64,000 nucleotides of DNA, taken from positions 2,592,001 to 2,656,000 of the forward strand of contig CM000151.3 of NCBI GenBank assembly GCA_000004695.1, read 5' to 3'. Below the pieces are notes generated by a model that was not told the origin of the DNA, made no database searches, and worked only from the letters and a program-made list of their open reading frames with translations. This document shows positions 6,805 through 59,990 of the stretch, one piece after another. The translations under genes and the position numbers were made by a program. This DNA is from Dictyostelium discoideum. Lineage: Eukaryota. Each line of letters starts with the position of its first letter. Within the stretch, counting starts at the first letter, position 1.

Positions 6805-7293
6805 AAAAATAAATAAATGAATATAATTTAATTGTTTTTTTATTTTTGAAGCATTTTGTGTGTCTATACTAAGTTCATATTAAAAATAAAATCATTGTTA
6901 CAAATAAAACTAATTAAAAAATTAAAAATAAAATGAAATGTGAAGTTCAAAAGTTTCAAAAAAAAAAAATTTCTTCTAATTTTAATTTAAACCAAAAATT
7001 TTATTTTTTGTAATTGTTTTATGTAAAAAAAAAATAAAAAAAATGAAAATCAGAAATTTATAAGTTTTTTATTTTAAAGAATATTTAGTAGGTAATAAAA
7101 AATAGATTTTTTTTTAAAAAAAAAAAAAAATATGGACAAAATAAATATTTATTTTTTTCAAATGTTTTTGATAAAAAAAAAAAAAAAAAAGATTTTGAAT
7201 ATTGAAGAATTTACTATAAAAAAAGAAATGTAAGGTGAAGTGTATAAAAAGTAACAAAGAGTAAAAAAGTGGCAAAGATATTTTTTCCTAAAC

Positions 7294-7336
<43 letters not shown>

Positions 7337-7716
7337 ATAACTTTGTGAAGTGTTGTTCGAAGGACACAGAAATACACATTGGCTTCAATCGAATTTTTGG
7401 ACTATATATAAAAAAAAAAAAAAAAAATTTACTAATTGTATTTTTTTTTTATTTTTTTTTTTAATTATTTTTTTTTCCAAAACGATGTGTGATCACTCCG
7501 TTTTTAATTTTTATAATGTTTTTTTTTTAACTTTGGCGATGTGTTTTTTAAGTGTTTTTATTCCAATTTTCAATTTCTATTTTTGTATTTAAATTGAATT
7601 TTACAAACCATTTTTTTTTTTTTTTTCACCCCTTTTATGATTATAATTGTTTTATAATTTATCATCAAAAAAAAAAAATATATATATATATATATATTGG
7701 TAAAAGAATAATAAAA

Positions 7717-8921
7717 ATGTCTTTAGTACCACCAAATTTTTTAACTTTAAATGTTTGCCAAGATGCTTTTAATAATTTATTTTCATTATATTTTTCAGAA
7801 CATGATCATGACCATGAAGAAGATGGTGGTGGTGGTCATGAAGGACATATACATGCAGGTGTTTCATGTGAAGAAGATCCAGATAAACAATATAGTAGAC
7901 CGATACATATTGCAGCGATTTTCATTATTTTGGCTTGTTCCATTTTTGGTACAGTTATTCCAATTGTTGCCACTCATGTTAAAAAATTAAGAATTCCAAG
8001 ATATGCTATTATCGTTGGTAAATCAATTGGTATTGGTGTAGTTTTATCATGCGCTCTCATTCATATGTTATTACCAGCAGTTGTTGCACTTGGATCTGAC
8101 TGTTTACCAGATTCCTGGCATGAAGGATATGAAGCTTATCCTTACCTTTTTGCATTGTTAGCTGGTATTGTCATGCAATTTATCGATTTTACAGTTCTCC
8201 AATATTTAACCCACAAAGAACAAAAAAAATCAATGTCATTAGATTCATCAACCAAAACAGACAATTCATTAAAAGAAGTCCATACCACTGGAAATGTTGA
8301 AAATTGTCATGGCAGCCATGTTCATGGAGGTCTTTTAATGGATCCAGCTGCTTTAAAAACTATTGAAGCTTATTTATTGGAATTTGGTATTACAGTTCAT
8401 TCAGTTTTCATTGGTTTGGCTGTTGGTGTTGTTGATGATAAAATTTTAAAAGGTAAATTAATTAATAAACACAAAAAACTAATTATAATAATTAAATATT
8501 TATTTTTATTTTTATTTTTATTTTTATTTTTATTTTAGCATTATTGGTTGCATTAGCTTTCCACCAATTTTTTGAAGGTGTTGCACTTGGTTCAAGAATA
8601 GCAGACGCTAAATTAACATCACACTGGCATGAAGCTTTGTTGACTGCAATTTTCTCTTTTTCAGCTCCAGTTGGTATTGCGATTGGTGTTGGTGTTGCCT
8701 CAACACTCAATGTAAATGGTGCAACCTATTTAATTGTTCAAGGTGTTTTCGATAGTGTTTGCGCTGGTATTTTACTTTACATTGGTTTTTCTTTAATGAT
8801 CAAGGATTTCCCAGAAGATATGGAACAATTATGTAAAGGTAAAAAATTTGAATATTTATTACGTGCTGGTTTATTTATCGGTCTTTGGCTTGGCGCAGCT
8901 ATGATGGCTTTTATAGGAAAA

Positions 8922-8930
<9 letters not shown>
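7717..8930 (+). CDS. ZIP (ZRT/IRT-like) family divalent metal (zinc) transporter, 2 exons
   Basis: ATG at 7717. His-rich loop EHDHDHEEDGGGGHEGHIHAG. Multiple TM helices. ZIP signature motifs HSVFIGLAVG and HQFFEGVALG. Exon 1 7717..8452 (donor G|GTAAAT), 86-nt AT intron, exon 2 8539..8930 (acceptor ttttag). Phase-1 junction yields …ILK-A-LLVALAFHQFFEG…. TAA stop at 8928..8930. Confidence 0.85.
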
Positions 8931-8961
<31 letters not shown>

Positions 8962-9295
8962 ATTTTAAATTTAGTTTTAGGTAGGACAAAAACTAAAAAA
9001 AAAAAAAAAAGAAAATATTAAAAAATAAAAAAGAAAATGTAAAAAAATTAAAAAATTGTAAAGAATTAAGAAGTAATAATGATCATATATTTCTGGATTT
9101 TTAAAATTTTAAAAAAATAAAAAAATAAAAAAATAAAAATCCAAGTTTTAAAAATAATAAAGTTTTAAGTTATTATTATATAACTCCAATTTGTTTTACA
9201 AATTTTATAACCACTATTTTTTAAAGAAAATGAAAAATCAGATTATTAAAATCTTTATAAAAAACTCAGGGAATTATGATTTTTAATAATAATAT

Positions 9296-13220: not shown

Positions 13221-15886
13221 CTAATTTAAAGCTCCTAATTTCTTTGACATTGAAACAGCAAATTTTTTGTTTTTCTTTGTTTTGTGAACAGAGTAAACAA
13301 TACTAACAACAATTACAGTTGCAAAACCTGCAGCACCAATAGCAATACCAGCGATTTGACCTTTTGTTAAACCAGATTTCTTTGAACATATTGAATTTTC
13401 ACTTGATTGTGATGCCGCATTTTGGTCGATTAAAAGTGAAAAATCAGGATCAATCGATACAGATTCACTATAATGTGGAATTATTATACCAATATAGGAT
13501 TGTTGAGCATGTGTATTTGATTCAATTGTATTCATTGAATCATCAAGTAAAACATTGTCAACGCTAACTACAAGATCATCAACGATAGCTCTTTTTAAAA
13601 ATCTACCGTAAACGGAATGATCATCAATTTGTAATTTAATAAAGTTTGAATCGTCACCATTTGTGGTATCACCAAATGATTTTGAGGAACATACATCATC
13701 ATTGCTATTATCACCTGTGGAAAGTAATGTTGCAGACATTACCAATTGGAGTTGATTTAATGCTGATGAGAATGGGTAATTTGTAATATCAACATTGAAT
13801 TTAATTGATGATGGATTCATTGTTAATTGTTGACCTGCGAATGTAACGCTTGAAGTTTTTGAAAACCATTGCATTGTTGTTGTAACATTAACTTTTTCAT
13901 CTTTACCTTCAATTGAAATTGTTGTATCGTATCTACTAGTATTTGAGTTTATTTCTTTAAATGACCATGTATTTAATGGAATGGTTTTGATTGGATTACC
14001 ATTGAAATCTAATTCTCTTAATGAAACAATTGAAATTAATGATTTGTAAATAATTTGTGGTGGTAAGTTTGGATTACCGCCAGTGGTCGTAGAAGAACCA
14101 CCACCATTATCACCTGGAATTGGAATTTCTATTGATGGATTACTTCCATTAATTATTGGTGGTATAACTTCTAAGAGTTTTGAACTACAATCTTTACCAT
14201 AATATGGAGTTATACAAACACAACCATTCTTTGTACAAACACCTTGATTTTCTCCACCACATTCTGGGTTACCTAAACATTTTTGAGGTGGATTTGTTGG
14301 AATTGGTGATTTTGTTGGAGGTTGAGTTGGAGGTTTAGTTGGAGGTTGAGTTGGAACTGGGTCAGTGTAGTTGAAAAAGTATAGTTCTGGTGTAATTGTA
14401 ATAATGTTTGATTTTTTGACTGGTTGTAATGAATTTAAAAGTTGAACTGTGAATGATTGATTTGTTGGTTTGATACCTGTAATTACTAAGGCACTATTGT
14501 ATCTATTACCTGTAATTGGTTGAGATACTAATTGGGAATCATAGTAAACAATATTAACAGTATCTATTGAAGAGAAACCTCTACCCTGTAACAATATATC
14601 ACCTCCTTGATTTGTTATACCTGTTGAAGATTTTATAATTGGAATATCCATTGAAAATTGATCAGTTGTAATAAACCATGCAGTTGAACCCATAGATTTA
14701 AGTAAATCACTTGAATAGCCTGAATAATAGCCACCATTATTAATGAAACCATAAACTGAAACTGTAAATCCGAGTGGATAACCAAAGCCAACTGGTATTT
14801 CAACTGTACATGAATATTCTGCATCTGTTGATGTTCTTGATTCAATTTTTGAAATGCATTCTACTGAACCTAAATTTTCATCAATTAAATAAATAGCTGG
14901 AAATTGGTTATTCTTTAAACCACTATCTAAATCTTGTGCTTTGAAATTAAAAGTAATTGATCTATCTTGAGAACCAACATCAATATTTGTTTTTGATGCT
15001 GTAAAACTAATTAAAGTTGGTGGAGATGTATCTAATGCTGTGCTACAATTTGTGCTATCTACTGAAAGTGTCAATGATTCATATGGTAAAAGGTAAAATG
15101 GATTGACAACTGAAACAATGCTAAGAGGACTTAGAACTCTTTCATTATCAAGCACAGCCATATAATTATTTACATTACCAAATGTATCGCCAAGATAAGC
15201 ATTGACTATAATATAATCTTGAGCAATACAACCATAGTTATTTAAATTATCTTGTAATGGTATTGAAATTAAATAATCTGCTTTCCATTTATCTCCACTT
15301 CCTCTAACAGCTGTTGAAGGTGAAATTGAAAAATTATATACTGACGAATCTAAACTACCTTTAACAGTTACAAAACCATTTAAAAATCCATTAATTTCAT
15401 CTTCAATTGTTAATAACCAACCAACATTTGATGTTCCAAAATCTGATTGCGATTTTTTAACTATTTTTGTAACTATTGGACCTACAATATCAATATTCTC
15501 TGAAATTATATTTAATTGATATTTATCTGGTAATGCTGTGTTTATGAGTGTATTATATTTGGCAAATGTTAAAGTCCAATCCAACACACCTGGTACTATA
15601 TTTGCTGGCATTTTAAACATTACACTAAATCTACTATTTGATTCATCCCATTTTGCAAATTTATAATTAGGGCTGTACTTTAAGGAATAATCTGTTTGTG
15701 CATTATTATCTTTTAATGTTTTTGGTTCAGATAATGAAAAACCAATTGCTAAATTTTTATAATTTTCAATATTATCAAATGTAAAATACATTATATTATC
15801 TACACTTTGATTTGTAACATGGACATTATTAAATAAGAATGAAATATTTTTTAAATCTTTATAATAATTTACTGTATCTATTTTTA

Positions 15887-15921
<35 letters not shown>

Positions 15922-16354
15922 AATAAAATTTAAAAATTAATATTTTAAACCATTTCTTTTTAAATTTACATCTTAATAGTATATATTAATATATTTATAA
16001 CTTACTATTTAATTGAATTCCAGGTAAAATCATAATTTGATCAGGATTGGTAATTGAAAATGGATATAATGGGGTATAAGTTGTTTTTAAATCCAATTCA
16101 TTAATAAGTGAAACTGCATTTTGGGTATCAATTCCCAAGTTTACTCCATCATGCACATATTCCCAAGCACCATTTAAATTATTACCTGATACTAAATTTT
16201 GAGATCCAAATCTTAAATAAACACCATCTATAATATGATCGATATATTTAACACCTACATCATCTTGAGCTTTAAAAATGACTAAAAATGAAAATTGGAA
16301 AATATTAATCCTTTCAACAGATGTAATCTTTCCTAGACTTCCATTGACTAATTA

Positions 16355-16390
<36 letters not shown>

Positions 16391-18042
16391 CTCTGTTAGT
16401 TAATTTTTAATAAAAAAGAAACAAAAGTATTAATTATATCATACCAATTTTATAAAAATCTTTATTTACTTCAACAAATGATGAACCACAGTTCCAAGAA
16501 AAACTTTGTTGAAATGATTTAGGTGAAATAGGAGTGGAAATACTCATTTGATTATTATCATTGTTACCATTAATAAATCCAAATGGGAAATCATAAATAA
16601 AACCAGAATCAAATATTTGTTTGAAATTACAAGTCAAAGTTTTAAAATCATATCTGGAAAAACCATTAAACTTTACAGTTATAAAATTTGATGTTGTGGT
16701 ATTATCAAGGCTAACGGTTGGTGTACCCAATGGATTTGAAGTTGTTACTAATAGATAGTTTGTATGGTTTATTAGTTTAAAATCATAAGAATATTAAAAT
16801 TTAAAATTTAAAAATATTAAAAAACTTACTTTGGAAATTAAATGTTGAATTGAAATCATTCTTGAATGAGTTATCCTCCTTTTGGGAATAAAAATTAAAA
16901 TTTTGTTCTCCAAACAAAAGTGGCATTGGGTTAACGAAATATTTAACCTTACCTTTTACACCAGATATTGGTTTAGGAGTAAAGTAGAACGGACTACTTT
17001 CAAAAGAATAAACTGGTCTTTGAATTGATGAATTTGATGTGAATTCAATTCCAGTACCATACAAAGCATTGTATCGAAGGTCTCTCCACTTGTATTCTTG
17101 AATATCAGTTATTGAAATAATTGGATCTTTTATAATAAAAAAATTTGATTGTTAATATTAATATTATTATTATTTTTTTTATTTTTTTAATATATATATT
17201 GATTTATATTAAACTTACCTAAAAGATTAAATGGTACTGAAACTTTTAAAACTTGATTACTTGTAAATTTTAAATCAATATCCCATATATTTGAATTTGG
17301 TGCAATTTTTAAATAATAATTTTCACTATATAAAATTCGGTATTGAGAGTTTCCCATTCTATTTAATGTCGCAAAATCACTCTCAGGCATTGTACTTTCA
17401 TCTGGTACTCCATTTAATCTTACAATTGATGAATATTTATAAACATCATTCCAAGTAACCTCTTGAATAATATCTATTGTTACTAATGATACTTCAACCT
17501 CTATTTAAATTTTATTTTGAAATGTAGAATTTAAAAAAGATATTAATAAAAAAAAATAAAAAAAAAAGGATAAAAATTTAATTAAAAAAAAATAAAAAAT
17601 AAATAATAATAAAAAAAATTATTTGTTTAAAAAATAAAATAAAATAAATGAAAAAAAAAAATAAAAATAAATGAAAAAAAATAAAATAATTACCTTTGCA
17701 AATATAACTAACATTTAAATATCCATTGTTTTGATTACCATCATTAACTGTAAAAATAATATTTTTTGTTTCCCCAATGTTTAAATACTCAAAATGGCTA
17801 TAAAGACTAAAATCACTGGTTGAAGTTAAAAAAAAACTAGCTGGAAATAAATTATCTATATTGGATTGTTGAGTAGAATTATTTACTAAAATATAATGAT
17901 AAACACCACAAACGCTTTGTGTCAAATATTGAGGGTAACTTATTAATAGATTATTTGGAGTAATATCTGTTAATATAAATTGCGATTTAATAAATCCAAA
18001 ATTTATTAATAATATATAAAAAAATAAATAAAAAAATTTCAT
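13221..18042 (-). CDS. Large (~1400 aa) type I transmembrane glycoprotein with signal peptide, EGF-like Cys module and Pro/Thr-rich stalk. 6 exons, all introns phase 1.
   Basis: Exon 1 17694..18042 starts MKFFYLFFYILLINFGFIKSQ (signal peptide). Exons 17219..17500, 16830..17126, 16445..16747, 16006..16347, 13221..15877 hand-spliced with GTAAGT/GTAAT/GTATGA donors and AG acceptors; every junction is phase 1. Terminal exon contains CLGNPECGGENQGVCTKNGCVCITPYYGKDCSS (EGF-like), TQPPTKPPTQPPTKSPIPTNPPQ stalk, many N-x-S/T sites, TM segment IAGIAIGAAGFATVIVVSIVYSV and short cytoplasmic tail. Tool ORFs 16434.., 16801.., 17187.., 17578.. are its internal exons. Confidence 0.7.
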
Positions 18043-18530: not shown

Positions 18531-18960
18531 CTTCTAATTTCCTTGCATTTTTTGTTTTTCTTTGTTTTGTGAACAGAGTAAACAATACTAACAACAATTA
18601 CAGTTGCAAAGCAAACAGAACCAATTGTAATACCAGCGATTTGACCTTTTGTTAAACCAGATTTCTTTGAACATATTGAATTTTCACTTGATTGTGATGC
18701 CGCATTTTGGTCGATTAAAAGTGAAAATCAGGATCAATCGATACAGATTCACTATAATGTGGAATTATTATACCAATATAGGATTGTTGAGCATGTGTAT
18801 TTGATTCAATTGTATTCATTGAATCAATTGTATTCATTGAATCATCAAGTAAAATATTATCAACACTAACTACAAGATCATCAACGATGGCCCTCTTTTT
18901 AAAAATCTACTGTAAACTGAATGATCATCAATTTGTAATTTAATAAAGTTTGAATCATCA
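18531..18960 (-). pseudogene. Degraded duplicate of the 3'-terminal exon (TM segment, C-terminus, 3' flank) of the 13221..18042 glycoprotein gene, located just upstream of that gene's promoter
   Basis: 18531..18960 aligns at roughly 90% with 13241..13670 (e.g. gtgaacagagtaaacaatactaacaacaattacagttgcaaa…ttgacctttt gttaaaccagatttctttgaacatattgaattttcacttgattgtgatgccgcattttggtcgattaaaagtgaaaa). It differs by a 1-bp deletion (gtgaaaatcagg vs gtgaaaaatcagg), an internal 17-bp tandem duplication (ttgtattcattgaatca x2) and substitutions that break the frame. Tool ORF 18870..19064 (…DDSNFIKLQIDDHSVYSRFLKR…) is the remnant frame. Confidence 0.7.
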
Positions 18961-19089
18961 AGCAAATTTTTATTTAGGAATTTCAAAAATATTTCTCTAA
19001 AGGATTTCTTATCAAACCTCATTGAAAATTTCAGCACTAAAGTGTTAAAAAAAAAAAGAGGCAACCAACTAGCACATAATTACTTTTTA

Positions 19090-19483: not shown

Positions 19484-19652
19484 AAATAATGTGGTGTGTG
19501 GGATTTAAATTAACTAAATTTAATTTTACGTTGCCTTACGCACACCAACATTTTAATGCATTGACTAAACATATATTAAATATTAATTAAAATTACAATT
19601 TAAATTTTTTTTTTTTTTATTATTTTTTATAATTTTTTTAATTTTATATAAT

Positions 19653-19764
<112 letters not shown>

Positions 19765-20259
19765 GGATTTGCTTTTAAATAAAATAAACAAATAACTTTT
19801 TATTTTATTTTTTCTGAATTTTGAAATTTCTTTTGATTTTTGTACAAATATAAGTAAATTATTTTTATTTACAATTAATTTGTTATTTTTAAAAAAAAAA
19901 AACATTTTAATTTAAATGAATTTAATATATAAAGTGGTGATAGAATAGACTGAATATAATAATTTTTCGGGAATAACTTTACATTAATAACCGAATCTCC
20001 CAAATTTAATATTTTAAATTCAATTTTAATTAATATACTTTAATTAAAATCAATTTTAATTAATATATTCTAAAAATGGAAATTTAAATTAATTTTTTTA
20101 TTTTATATAAAAAAGGATACTATTTTTTTTTTTTTTATTTTATTATAAAATACAAATATATTTTAAAAAGGTAAAAAATAAATATATCATAAACTTTAAA
20201 TATATATATTAATAGTTTTTTAAAAAAAAAGATAAAAAATAAAAAAAATAAAAAAAATC

Positions 20260-20484
20260 ATGTTAAAAATTTTAATAGCAATTTTAGTGGTGATCTCATT
20301 GTTTTCAAATGTAAATGCAATAGATATAGGAGATTATCAAAATGAAGCCCAGTGTGCCATAGGTTGTGTTAAAAATGCACCAAATTATTCATATGAATGT
20401 GCAAACTGGAGTTTCCCATCATGTAGAGATTTATTAAAAAAATGTGCAATAGAATGCGCAGAAGCTTATGAAAATGCCAGATAA
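20260..20484 (+). CDS. Small secreted cysteine-rich protein (74 aa: signal peptide plus ~54-aa mature peptide with 6 Cys)
   Basis: ATG in A-rich context. MLKILIAILVVISLFSNVNA (signal peptide) then IDIGDYQNEAQCAIGCVKNAPNYSYECANWSFPSCRDLLKKCAIECAEAYENAR, TAA stop. Single exon. Complexity and codon usage (GC at third positions) higher than flanking DNA. Confidence 0.5.
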   Translation: MLKILIAILVVISLFSNVNAIDIGDYQNEAQCAIGCVKNAPNYSYECANWSFPSCRDLLKKCAIECAEAYENAR

Positions 20485-21528
20485 TTAAAATTATGAAAAA
20501 AATGGGCTGGTCACAAGGTTTTGTTTAAAAAAATGGACTTAATGTCTGATAACAAAGTTTGTTTAAAAAATAAAACAAATAAACATTAATAAAAAAAAAC
20601 CAAAAAAACATAACAATTTTTTAATTTTATTAAATTGTTTAAAATGTATTCAAAAAATATAAAGAAAACATTTAATCTTTGTATTAGTTTAAAAGTTTTT
20701 GGTATGAGAAAATGTGAATATATATTTTATGATTATGAAAAAATTAAAACCAAAATGAACGAGATTTTTTTATTTATTTATTTTTTATTTTTAATTATTT
20801 TGTTTTTTTTTTTTTTTATTTTTATTTTTATTATTTTAAAATCATATTATCAAGTATCTATAATTTTATTCATAAAATTAGTAATTCAATATGTCAACAA
20901 CTAGTAATGGTAATGATAATCCAGAAGCAGGTATGGAAATGATTTAAATATAGATATTACTCAAAATCTTGAAATAAATGCAAATCAACCACGACAGAAA
21001 ACAAATGATATAGTAAACCAATTTCCAACATATACACCATCATTACAACATCAACCTCACAAATTATTTTAAAGTCAATAACAAATACATTAAGAAAACA
21101 ATAAACACTGTTGTAGCCAACCAACAAATGTTTTAAGATTGTGACCCATATTATTCAAAGGATTGTACTAACTTATAAGATGCAAAATTTATTGTTCAAA
21201 TCATTACAATGTTTATATTTCACAATCTATTAAATAAAACAAAAATATAAAAAAATTTAAAACAATTGTTTTATAATTGTTTAATTTTATTATTATTATC
21301 ATTATTTTTTTTCCCCAAAAAATTATTTTAATATTTTTATATTTAGTATTTGGAATTTATTTATCTCTGTTCTTCCAATTTTTTTCATTATTTAATTAAT
21401 TATCAAAAAATTGTCTAAAATGATACATTATTTATTTATATATCAAAACAAACAGTGTTTTTTTTTTTTTTTTATTTAATACTATTTTAAAATTTTTATT
21501 TATTATTTTATTTTAAATTTATAATTTA

Positions 21529-52606: not shown

Positions 52607-53812
52607 TTAAATTATTTAAAACTAAATAAATAACATAAATAAATAAAAAATAAATAAAAAAATAAATAAAGATGTATTTTTAAAAAAAAAACAATAATAA
52701 AAACAAAATAATTATTTTAGTATATATCACATTATTTGATAAAAATAATAAAAAAATAAAAAAAATAATAAAAAAAATAAAAAAAAAAAAAAATAAAAAA
52801 AATAAAAAAAATAAATATTATTAAAATAAAAATTTAAAAACGATTGGTTTCTCGTTCTTATGAATAATTTACTTCTTTCAAAAAAAAAAAAAAAAAAATT
52901 AATTAAATTAAATTATATAGGTTACAATTTTTTAAAAGGAAGAAACCACCAATTTTTTTTTTTTATTTTGTTTTTTTTTTTTTTTTTTATTAAACAAAAA
53001 ATTAATTCAAAAAAAAAAAATTAAAAAAAAGAAAAAAAAAGAGATAAATATTTTTCAACTGTTATCTATTAATTTTTATTTAAATTTAACACCCATTTAG
53101 CTCTATAGGTAATTAATATGCATTATTTTTTTAAATTTTTTTTTATTTTTTAATTTTTTTAATTTTTTAATTTTTTATTTTTTTTAATACCAGGTGGTTA
53201 ATTATGATTATTGTTAATATTGTTATGTGCGGTAATTTATTTATTTGGTAAATTTGGAATTTCTCATATTTAAACAAACATTCGATCTTAGGAACCCCAC
53301 ATTTACCATAATAATTATTTTTTAATACTGGTATAGTGTTTGTGGTTTAATTAACTTTCATTTCATAAACACACCAAATAAACCCACCCCCAAAAACGAA
53401 AATAATTAGATTTTTTAAAAAATTTCTCAATACACCCCAAATTCAAACATTGATTTTTATAACTTTCTACTCTTTTTATTTTTTTTATTTTTATTTTTTT
53501 TTTTTTAATTTTTTATTTTTATTTCATTTTTTTAACTATTCCAATAGTAATAAACACATATTTTTATTTTATTTTATTTTTATTTTTTTTATTATTATTA
53601 TATTTCACTTTAAAAAATATTCACTTTAAATTTTTCTAACAATAATTTACCTTTTTAAAATAATTTAGTAAAAAAAAATTAAAAAAAAAAATAAAAAACA
53701 CATTAAACAATTTTTTTTTTTTTAAGGATTTCCATATTTTTCACATTTAATTTTTTTTATTATTTATTGGAAATCCTTCCTCGTTATTAAAACCTTATTA
53801 AAAATTAAATTA

Positions 53813-53969
<157 letters not shown>

Positions 53970-54002
53970 TAAAATAAAATAAAATAATAAAAATAATATT
54001 AG

Positions 54003-54032
<30 letters not shown>

Positions 54033-54035
<3 letters not shown>

Positions 54036-55664
54036 TTAATTGAATGTAGATTTTGTTTAGAAGAAATTGAAGTTGAAGATCCAATTTATGATAAAAAAGA
54101 ATTTAATTTAAATGAAAATTCAATAAAATCAAAAGATATAGAAATAGAAGAATTAGAATTTAAAGAGAAATTAAATCGAAATAGTAATGGCGGATATGTA
54201 GAATTAACACCAATTTCACAATCAAAGAGACAACGTAAGAATATTGGTAATAGATTAGTTAGACCATGTGATTGTAAAGGTACTCAAAGACATGTACATG
54301 TTAAATGTCTTTGTGAATGGATTGGTAAATGCAATAAATGGTATTGTTCAATCTGTCATAGAGTTTATAATTTATCACCACATCATTTACATTATTGTGT
54401 AATGAAATTACAAAGAAAAGGAGTTTTAAAGAATTTACCACCAATCTATTCAAATACTGAATTCTCTCGTTCAAGTTATTTTGCATTATTAATTTTTATG
54501 GGTACACTAAGTATGTTAATGTTACCTTCAACTCTACCACAACAAAATTCAAAAATTTATTATGGTGTCGACACAATTTTAAATAACCATATAAATAATA
54601 ATAACAATAATAATGGTGTTGGTAGTGGTAGTGGTGGTAGTGGAACAGGTGGTGCAACAGTAAATTCATTATTATTTAATAATTTTAATGGTGGTATAAT
54701 ATCATTTTCAAATGAGGTTAGTGGAGGTGGCATGTTTATGAATTATAATCCACTAGTTGGTATTAATGGAGATACAACCACTGCTGGTTATAATCCAGGA
54801 TTTCTAAATTCGCCATCAGTTTCTTATTATAGTTTTTATCCATCTTCTTCTTCACCATCAATTTATATATCTTCAACGGGAGGTAGCTCTTCAGCAGCAC
54901 AACTTAACTTTCATCAACATTATAATGTAAATTCAATTCAAAGTAATAATAATAAAAATAAAAATAATAATAAAAATGATAATAATGATAATAACAATAT
55001 TAATATCAAAAATAAAGGAAAAGATTTGAATGAAAAATTATTTGAAAGTGATTTTGATCAATATTTTAATAGTGATTCAGCATCAATATTTTCATCATGT
55101 AAATTAAAAAATCAAGATGAAAAGTTTAGTTCTTTTGTTTGTCATTCATCACTTTATAGTCCAAATGTATTAAATTCAAATAATAATCCAAATAATCAAC
55201 AACAAGTTAATTTTCATTTTCCAACAATAGTTCGTAGTAGTTCAACAAGTGGTGGTGGTAGTAGTAACAATAATGATGAAAGTACAGATAGTATAACAAG
55301 TGAACAGTTAAAACAACAACACAAAGTTTTATTAAAGAATTATAATTTTATTCATAATATTGAAAATTATCAACCAACCACCCCAACAACAACTACTTCT
55401 ACAATTTTACAAAATGGTGAAAATCGTTGTATTGATGAGAACGAACAACTACAACAACAAGAAACTGAACAACAACAACAATCAAAAAAATATAAATCAA
55501 CATCAAAATCACCAATTTTAAATAACTTAGGATCAGAATACCATGATGATATTCATTTACAAAATATTTACATTGCACATCAAAAATATCATCGTGTAAC
55601 AATTGCTGATTCATTTAAAAATATATTCTGTACCTTGATCCCAGTTAAAAGGTTCTGTTATTAA
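54033..55664 (+). CDS. RING-CH (MARCH-type, C4HC3) zinc-finger protein with one TM segment and a long N/S/G-rich low-complexity C-terminal region, 543 aa
   Basis: CRFCLEE…(spacer)…RPCDCKGTQRHVHVKCLCEWIGKCNKWYCSICH fits the C-x2-C…C-x-C…H-x-H-x2-C…C-x2-C spacing of RING-CH. Hydrophobic stretch YFALLIFMGTLSMLMLP. Confidence 0.6.
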
Positions 55665-55847
55665 AAATTAAAAAATATTACAATTATTTAAAAAAAAAAA
55701 AAAAAATAAAAGAAATAATTAAAAACAAATAATTTATATTTATTTTATTAATTTTATTAATTTTATTATTGTTATTATTATTAATTTTATTATTATTATT
55801 GTTTATTATTTATTATTATTTATTATTTATTATTTATTATTTATTAT

Positions 55848-59990
<4,143 letters not shown>

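Follow-up and report, generated by a model that had tools for sequence, protein, structure and literature searches.

What kind of protein is encoded by a gene in which every intron interrupts the reading frame in the same phase, and what does that layout say about how the gene was built? The question is raised by a locus on the minus strand (18042..13221) of a 64,000-nucleotide stretch of the Dictyostelium discoideum genome (assembly GCA_000004695.1, contig CM000151.3, positions 2,592,001 to 2,656,000; hereafter the window). An initial annotation, made from the DNA letters alone, took the product for an adhesion-type membrane glycoprotein, possibly of an undescribed family, assembled from exon-shuffled modules. 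We find that the locus is very probably an intact gene for a large type I (single-pass) membrane protein of the dictyostelid ComC-like family. The gene itself is ordinary; what is new is a rule that holds across the family, in which the introns mapped are all phase 1 and all lie between folded domains.

We rebuilt the gene from raw sequence by joining open segments across GT..AG introns. The resulting model has six exons and five introns, starts with an ATG at 18042-18040, stops with a TAG at 13223-13221 and encodes a product of 1,409 residues. The introns are 82-193 nucleotides long with a GC content of 6-13%, the exons are about 30% GC, and retention of any one of the five introns introduces an in-frame stop. 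Across the window the coding blocks are about 30% GC and the remainder 6-15%, AT-rich as is usual in dictyostelids. All five introns are phase 1, splitting a codon after its first base. Exons 1-5 encode 116, 94, 99, 101 and 114 residues and exon 6 a further 885, and the lengths of exons 2-5 are all multiples of three. The coordinates, intron number, phases and block sizes given by the initial annotation are thus all correct: the spliced product is identical at every residue to the independently annotated GenBank entry KAM9952192.1 ('hypothetical protein ACTFIT_002884 [Dictyostelium discoideum]'). The window and the ACTFIT assembly agree at 99.85% over 24.8 kb, with 1 mismatch and the remaining differences indels. 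The parts of the gene, in coding order, are as follows.

17694..18042, minus strand: exon 1, residues 1-116 plus 1 nucleotide; signal-peptide-like leader and immunoglobulin-like (Ig-like) module 1
17501..17693, minus strand: intron 1, 193 nucleotides, GTAATT..ATAG, 6% GC, phase 1; ancestral family intron
17219..17500, minus strand: exon 2, 282 nucleotides, 94 residues, symmetric 1-1; Ig-like module 2
17127..17218, minus strand: intron 2, 92 nucleotides, phase 1
16830..17126, minus strand: exon 3, 297 nucleotides, 99 residues, symmetric 1-1; Ig-like module 3
16748..16829, minus strand: intron 3, 82 nucleotides, phase 1
16445..16747, minus strand: exon 4, 303 nucleotides, 101 residues, symmetric 1-1; Ig-like module 4
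16348..16444, minus strand: intron 4, 97 nucleotides, phase 1
16006..16347, minus strand: exon 5, 342 nucleotides, 114 residues, symmetric 1-1; Pfam DUF7743, Ig-like module 5
15878..16005, minus strand: intron 5, 128 nucleotides, phase 1
13221..15877, minus strand: exon 6, 2,657 nucleotides including the TAG stop, residues 525-1409; intronless

The exact protein and its 90% cluster contain only accessions from 2025-era assemblies (ACTFIT, ACTFIR), with no AX4, dictyBase or UniProt accession in a patchy word-index search; other family paralogs of the same ACTFIT assembly are identical to AX4 entries. Judged by these sequence records, the reference annotation may lack or mis-model this gene, whose neighbours are Polyketide_cyc, NDK and Zip genes.

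Pfam profiles place the protein in a known family. DUF7035 matches at residues 653-795 (E = 1e-29, 103.5 bits against a cutoff of 27), DUF7034 at 811-930 (E = 6e-35, 120.4 bits, cutoff 27), the six-cysteine EGF-like knot DUF7949 at 1058-1091 (E = 2e-15, 57.3 bits, cutoff 27) and ComC_SSD (PF22933) at 1136-1340 (E = 9.3e-20, 71.6 bits, cutoff 24), the last over profile positions 21-222, or 202 of 222. Exon 5 searched alone matches DUF7743 (E = 1.9e-8, 34.5 bits, cutoff 27), and no model in the Pfam copy searched matched exons 1-4. An exhaustive HMMER scan of 1.84 billion cluster representatives returned 386 clusters at E <= 1e-3 and 136 at E <= 1e-30, mostly of 1,300-1,450 residues and aligned over nearly the whole query; the family therefore has at least 386 cluster representatives, which are co-linear members or tandem fusions of them. 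All representatives looked up are dictyostelid, and all dictyostelid groups sampled are represented. They include the D. discoideum AX4 paralogs Q54JJ9, DDB_G0278919/Q54XI0 and Q55EH0, and members from D. purpureum, D. firmibasis, D. citrinum, Heterostelium album, Tieghemostelium lacteum and Synstelium polycarpum. In a 35-member sample, which also served for the alignment and cysteine counts below, DUF7035, DUF7034 and DUF7949 occur together in every member and ComC_SSD in 34. An uncharged 20-mer lies within the last 80 residues of 84 of the 88 full-length representatives, consistent with a type I topology.

The proposal of an undescribed cell-surface family therefore falls, given the Pfam matches and the number of representatives. 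The clear match to a well-characterised family that, for the initial annotation, would tell against it exists in part: the Pfam matches are clear, and one domain takes its name from ComC, a developmental gene characterised by genetics. The gene is nonetheless an uncharacterised member of a family that, while already catalogued, is functionally almost unstudied. Database names for members are 'EGF-like domain-containing protein' or 'hypothetical', apart from one UniRef representative called 'Carbohydrate binding domain-containing protein', and a literature search found no mention of the paralog DDB_G0278919. Some family 'proteins' are very long (P0007 has 2,686 residues and P0040 3,928; P0053 and P0069 are similar cases), and the query matches them in two to three consecutive stretches. 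These are probably tandem neighbours fused by gene prediction, pointing to tandem arrays in other dictyostelids.

Better-known extracellular domains were also sought. The Ig, I-set, V-set, C2-set and fn3 Pfam profiles matched neither the whole protein nor the separate exon modules, no canonical EGF model rose above threshold (the only hit was EGF_TEN, 15.1 bits against a cutoff of 65), and a sequence search of the PDB gave no match at E <= 1. An IPT/TIG (PF01833) identity for residues 936-1030 was rejected, with no match at E <= 10 there or in any exon module, nor at E <= 1 in the whole protein. A profile search for Ig, IPT, EGF and FN3 domains, as the initial annotation had advised, thus bears out the EGF-like module, in the form of DUF7949, but none of the canonical models.

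An AlphaFold2 model of residues 21-668, based on the 35-sequence family alignment, is all-beta with a mean predicted local distance difference test score (pLDDT) of 84 and a predicted template modelling score of 0.82. Each of exons 1-5 corresponds to one Ig-like sandwich of 6-8 strands (modules 1 and 2 have six strands each, at pLDDT of about 85 and 88), and module 6 reaches a pLDDT of about 91. The N-terminal part is accordingly predicted with good confidence to be a string of about six tandem Ig-like sandwiches with no specific relative, five of them encoded by one exon each. The 16 cysteines of the protein pair within modules; in module 1 the Cys45/Cys115 pair joins an invariant residue to one at least 90% conserved, and the exon 4 module has a Cys349/Cys396 pair and the family motif FPFGFxxGNN. 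The model of residues 640-1409 (pLDDT 79, with disordered linkers) runs in the order three sandwiches, a disordered Pro/Thr linker, the EGF-like knot, a disordered Gly/Ser/Thr linker (residues 1115-1130), a sandwich of about 200 residues and a transmembrane helix. Beyond exon 5 the domains are arranged as follows.

15501..15877, minus strand: Ig-like module 6, residues 525-650; some paralogs have a sixth phase-1 intron (at about residue 652) before the next domain
15066..15494, minus strand: DUF7035 beta-sandwich, residues 653-795, with Cys741/Cys802; Pfam and model
14661..15020, minus strand: DUF7034 beta-sandwich, residues 811-930, with Cys865/Cys881; Pfam and model
14394..14639, minus strand: third C-terminal beta-sandwich, residues ~938-1019, from model strands; probably DUF8390
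14280..14360, minus strand: Pro/Thr-rich linker PTQPPTKPPTQPPTKSPIPTNPPQK, residues 1031-1057; predicted disordered, length differing among orthologs
14178..14279, minus strand: EGF-like six-cysteine knot, Pfam DUF7949, residues 1058-1091 (six-cysteine module 1058-1088)
13431..14045, minus strand: ComC supersandwich domain, residues 1136-1340, with Cys1254/Cys1355; membrane-adjacent, slowest-evolving module
13287..13355, minus strand: transmembrane helix, residues 1366-1388; sole internal hydropathy peak, helical in the model

DUF8390 is listed between DUF7034 and DUF7949 in newer, precomputed Pfam annotation and went unmatched in the local Pfam copy. The cysteines of the knot are invariant or at least 90% conserved in the family alignment. 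The supersandwich has a galactose-mutarotase-like fold, and its best PDB match by fold comparison is GLMP.

Most parts named by the initial annotation are present: a hydrophobic leader at residues 1-20 (window 17983-18042; MKFFYLFFYILLINFGFIKS, then Q), a single six-cysteine EGF-like module, the transmembrane helix and a short basic tail of 21 residues (HKTKKNKKFAVSMSKKLGALN, window 13224-13286). Its (TxPPTK)n membrane stalk is not what the sequence holds: there are only two repeats, inside the Pro/Thr linker of about 27 residues between a beta-sandwich and the EGF-like knot, some 310 residues before the transmembrane helix. The pLDDT falls below 50 at residues 1026-1046, and the linker is probably O-glycosylated. 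The large ectodomain stands, but its heavy N-glycosylation, while possible, finds no backing in the sequon count, the 17 N-x-S/T sequons comparing with 23.7 +/- 4.3 in shuffled sequence. Gene structure, family membership and architecture together can be held with high confidence.

The exons match the predicted domains closely. In the numbering of the N-terminal model the introns fall at residues 96, 190, 289, 390 and 504, each in an inter-strand loop, and in the D. citrinum ortholog the DUF7743 match (residues 413-526) coincides exactly with exon 5 (413-526). The suggestion that phase-1 introns separate folded modules thus holds, and it extends to relatives. Exact spliced matching of relatives' proteins to genomic loci brought the set to nine genes, this one included, in five species. 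The D. citrinum and D. firmibasis orthologs share all five introns at homologous positions, as does a D. discoideum paralog of 60% identity; the AX4 paralogs Q54JJ9, Q55EH0 and DDB_G0278919 have five, four and two introns, D. purpureum DICPUDRAFT_78591 has six, and the Polysphondylium violaceum member has one (intron 1). The introns total 38, every one of them phase 1, and fall at six homologous positions between domains (about residues 117, 211, 310, 411, 525 and 652 of this protein), the sixth exactly where DUF7035 starts (residue 653). None of the nine genes has an intron 3' of the sixth position. Intron 1 is shared in position and phase by P. violaceum, D. purpureum and the AX4 paralogs, and in both Polysphondylium and Dictyostelium it lies two residues past a family-conserved cysteine. 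Symmetric exons flanked by same-phase introns at domain boundaries are one mark of exon-shuffled (class 1-1) module proteins in Patthy's sense, and these genes have it. A literature search found no description of phase-1 exon modules in Dictyostelium.

Phase 0 is over-represented among introns in general, and phase 1 is preferred by mobile animal domains (PMC3488318); in one quoted genome phase 1 accounts for 36% of introns genome-wide (PMC5400394). If 30-36% of introns are taken to be phase 1, the chance that all six positions share it is about 0.001-0.002, the coincidence with domain boundaries being left uncounted. A parallel is found in the sponge aggregation factors, a clustered, rapidly evolving family of extracellular recognition proteins in which 154 of 155 introns are phase 1 and domains are confined to exon boundaries (PMC5400394). 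Their domains are unrelated, however (Calx-beta, Wreath, VWA/VWD), often span three exons each and belong to secreted proteoglycan components rather than to type I membrane proteins.

The simplest history is one of ancestral introns and differential loss. In the ancestral family gene, phase-1 introns would have set the first seven domains apart from one another, one domain to a symmetric 1-1 exon, and the N-terminal array would have grown as domain exons were duplicated or inserted by way of introns. Copying of whole genes, often in tandem, would then have given rise to the paralogs, which lost introns in different combinations, this gene retaining five of the six. That the array originated by exon duplication is a tentative proposal, to which we give rather less than an even chance. 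A profile-profile comparison of exon and domain slices, using the ortholog alignment, detected no significant internal similarity (the best pair, exon 5 against DUF7034, had E = 0.002 and a probability of 13%), so a tandem-duplication origin cannot be shown from sequence. As for the exon shuffling of the initial annotation, which the phase pattern makes plausible, its symmetric phase-1 exons at domain boundaries are real, but all members have their modules in one and the same order, and among the matches of the exhaustive whole-query search no module turned up in a different gene family or order, no module-by-module search having been made.

The uniform phase might instead owe nothing to duplication or shuffling, the introns having been gained later in inter-domain linkers, or the pattern having been inherited by chance from one ancestor. 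The 38 introns collapse to six ancestral positions, a small effective sample, and the Polysphondylium member has intron 1 alone; the mutual dissimilarity of the exon modules, the fixed domain order and the absence of the modules from other families among those matches point the same way. Against this, chance would rarely give one phase at six of six positions, all six of which are also domain boundaries, and independent gains are not expected to hit the same phase. Moreover, paralogs keep different subsets of the six positions and D. purpureum keeps all of them, which makes ancestral presence followed by loss more parsimonious than repeated gain. We therefore regard this alternative as unlikely, though not negligible. 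Exons 2-5 each encode a complete domain and are neutral to the reading frame, so exon skipping could still serve to make isoforms.

Is the gene functional? Ratios of non-synonymous to synonymous substitution (dN/dS; Nei-Gojobori method, per module) against the D. citrinum and D. firmibasis orthologs are below 1 in every module, which indicates constraint. They are lowest in the supersandwich (0.16-0.19), followed by module 6 (0.20-0.21), and range from 0.31 to 0.66 in exon modules 1-5, with exon 3 the fastest-evolving (about 0.65 against both orthologs). The gene is under purifying selection, and its N-terminal, membrane-distal modules evolve fastest. Positive selection was considered and rejected: the only value above 1 comes from the 35-codon EGF segment compared with a paralog (1.22, too few sites).

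A further candidate was hyper-polymorphism of the kind seen in tgrB1/C1. The TgrB1/TgrC1 proteins resemble this one in being type I membrane proteins with tandem Ig-fold domains from a large, dictyostelid-expanded family (PMC4931340 Table 4), and differ in that their IPT/TIG model is unmatched here. Between two D. discoideum assemblies the protein shares only 91% identity, but its exons differ by 4.6% per nucleotide as against 1.9-5.6% in flanking genes, which is not clearly higher; the 9% protein difference arises because the other strain is generally divergent, and the candidate was rejected. Even in housekeeping-type flanking genes the two assemblies, L006 and L004, both labelled D. discoideum, are 1.9-5.6% apart per nucleotide. 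This is far more than expected within a species, and one of them may be a cryptic lineage.

The paralog fragment that had been noticed upstream is also real, and DNA comparison with the gene identifies it as follows.

18563..19046, minus strand: frameshifted remnant of a tandem family copy (end of the supersandwich and transmembrane segment)

From 18960 to 18560 the remnant has about 95% DNA identity to the last ~400 coding bases of the gene. Four indels interrupt the match (2 bp inserted, 18 bp duplicated, 1 bp and 14 bp deleted), and the copy is read in three frames. From 19046 to 18960 it matches only other, more distant family members (31-43% amino acid identity). The mosaic suggests that gene conversion overwrote the 3' portion of an old tandem copy. 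The D. firmibasis ortholog has an equivalent upstream remnant and further debris, beyond which lies a full tandem paralog (L003:1-9264) whose exon 6 shares 98.4% identity with that of the ortholog but whose N-terminal exons share only 58-85%; in the spacer (7291-9264) lie several degraded pieces of family genes, in both orientations. Together these features point to gain and loss of copies within a tandem array and to gene conversion of the 3' part. In another D. discoideum assembly, GCA_054859385.1 (L006:10001-15814), a 1,467-residue gene model (P0169) starts within the upstream remnant, and its residues 26-86 match residues 1322-1384 of our gene; the N-terminal extension of that model is probably an annotation artefact.

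In such an array the gene itself could be a decaying or non-functional copy, as the dead fragment directly upstream and the missing AX4 reference accession in its 90% cluster might lead one to think. Its 1,409-codon frame is intact, however, its splice sites and phases are conserved in four genomes, the substitution ratios stay below 1 throughout and an independent assembly encodes the identical protein, all of which makes decay very improbable.

What might such a protein do? With the cleavable leader removed, its Ig-like domains would stand out from the cell surface as a long and partly rigid stalk. Trans contacts, whether with another cell, a substrate or a particle, would fall to the fast-evolving distal modules, and the conserved membrane-proximal supersandwich would bind a glycan or a partner membrane protein in cis, as GLMP does with MFSD1. 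Because the tail is short (HKTKKNKKFAVSMSKKLGALN holds no catalytic or known signalling domain), any signal would have to pass through the cis partner. In biological terms the protein would serve recognition, adhesion or communication between cells, in line with ComC, a developmentally essential gene with an aggregation and intercellular-communication phenotype (PMC2873529 Table 1; PMC8865844 citing Kibler et al. 2003). ComC has a signal peptide and transmembrane and EGF domains (PMC4931340 Table 3) and has been described as fibrosurfin-like (PMC2474670). Our protein shares with it a signal peptide, a single transmembrane segment, an EGF-type module and the supersandwich (E = 9e-20), but comes from a separate locus and has one EGF-like knot where ComC is described with more than one EGF domain. 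Reported orthologs of ComC are limited to group 4 (PMC4931340), whereas the wider family extends to all dictyostelid groups sampled. A surface recognition or adhesion role, as predicted from this anatomy, has in our estimate a nearly even chance of being right.

The supersandwich allows two other placements of the protein. In one, it would be an endolysosomal or phagosomal membrane glycoprotein, its supersandwich, transmembrane helix and tail acting as a GLMP-like protective or accessory subunit of a transporter or other polytopic protein, with the Ig-like array in the lumen. The likeness to GLMP, the accessory subunit of MFSD1 (PDB 8r8q chain B), exists at the level of the fold, with 11% identity and no Pfam match to the GLMP family at E <= 1, and many glycosidase accessory domains share that fold. 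GLMP lacks the N-terminal Ig-like array, the EGF knot and the linkers, leaving an extension of about 1,100 residues with multiple Ig-like domains that has no counterpart in it, and the tail shows by inspection neither a YxxPhi nor an acidic di-leucine sorting motif. This placement is improbable. In the other, the protein would be a lectin-type receptor for food bacteria or extracellular polysaccharide, with the supersandwich as glycan site and the Ig-like array as spacer. The fold is indeed the carbohydrate-associated fold of aldose epimerases and GH/GP accessory domains, the family representative named after a carbohydrate-binding domain (P0150) is in keeping with it, and the size and turnover of the family would suit a receptor repertoire for diverse prey. 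Yet the supersandwich is the most conserved part (dN/dS 0.16-0.25) and the distal modules diverge fastest, a distribution that fits a constant membrane-proximal function and variable distal recognition; we consider a lectin-type receptor no likelier than an endolysosomal subunit.

The account as a whole, a constrained and intact type I ComC-like protein with a recognition role and a modular gene history, is in our judgement somewhat more probable than doubtful. Several points weigh against it. Surface location and a role in adhesion or recognition are inferred from the architecture and one named relative, and the sequence link to ComC is established for the supersandwich domain only. The short tail carries no recognisable motif, and an endolysosomal location is possible because the supersandwich finds its best structural match in a lysosomal membrane protein. 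As the exon modules have no detectable mutual sequence similarity and none was found outside the family, duplication or shuffling is argued only from phase symmetry and its coincidence with domain boundaries. Finally, the gene models of the relatives come from annotation pipelines and not from transcripts.

The scan for tRNA genes around the gene found none. At 20200-20600 on the plus strand, in a locally GC-richer patch, a short open reading frame has a signal-peptide-like start and a Cys-rich body (MLKILIAILVVISLFSNVNA followed by IDIGDYQNEAQCAIGCVKNAPNYSYECANWSFPSCRDLLKKCAIECAEAYENAR) and, from these sequence features, may be the gene of a small secreted protein. A TAT/ATA-type trinucleotide run at 19627-19905 reads as poly-Tyr in one frame, and 3-nucleotide-periodic tracts at 53800-58090 cross-match between 53.8 kb and 58.0 kb; both arrays are ordinary Dictyostelium simple repeats.

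Animal multi-Ig ectodomains offer the widest comparison. Foldseek aligns the model end to end with those of six-Ig PirB/LILRB3, contactin-2, CSF-1R, CEA, RPTP sigma/delta and ICAM-5 at a probability of about 1.0, but with 8-10% identity, TM-scores of 0.1-0.17 and none of the corresponding Ig, I-set, V-set or FN3 Pfam matches. The animal receptor genes likewise have one domain per exon and phase-1 introns (PMC3488318), but the comparison gives no sign of common descent, and convergence on a shared fold and gene layout is equally possible. It is conceivable, though we lean against it, that the Dictyostelia independently evolved the animal adhesion and receptor layout of one Ig-like domain per phase 1-1 exon, in a family built around the time when social amoebae became multicellular. 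Modular exons of class 1-1 are generally treated as a hallmark of extracellular proteins in animals and of the way animal multicellularity arose. A clean example from a lineage that became multicellular independently would provide a second, experimentally tractable system for the question whether domain duplication mediated by introns serves generally as a route to cell-surface recognition repertoires. For the family itself, to which the developmental gene comC belongs, the analysis gives a structural annotation to hundreds of 'hypothetical' proteins: about nine Ig-like sandwiches, an EGF-like knot and, next to the membrane, a mutarotase-like domain.

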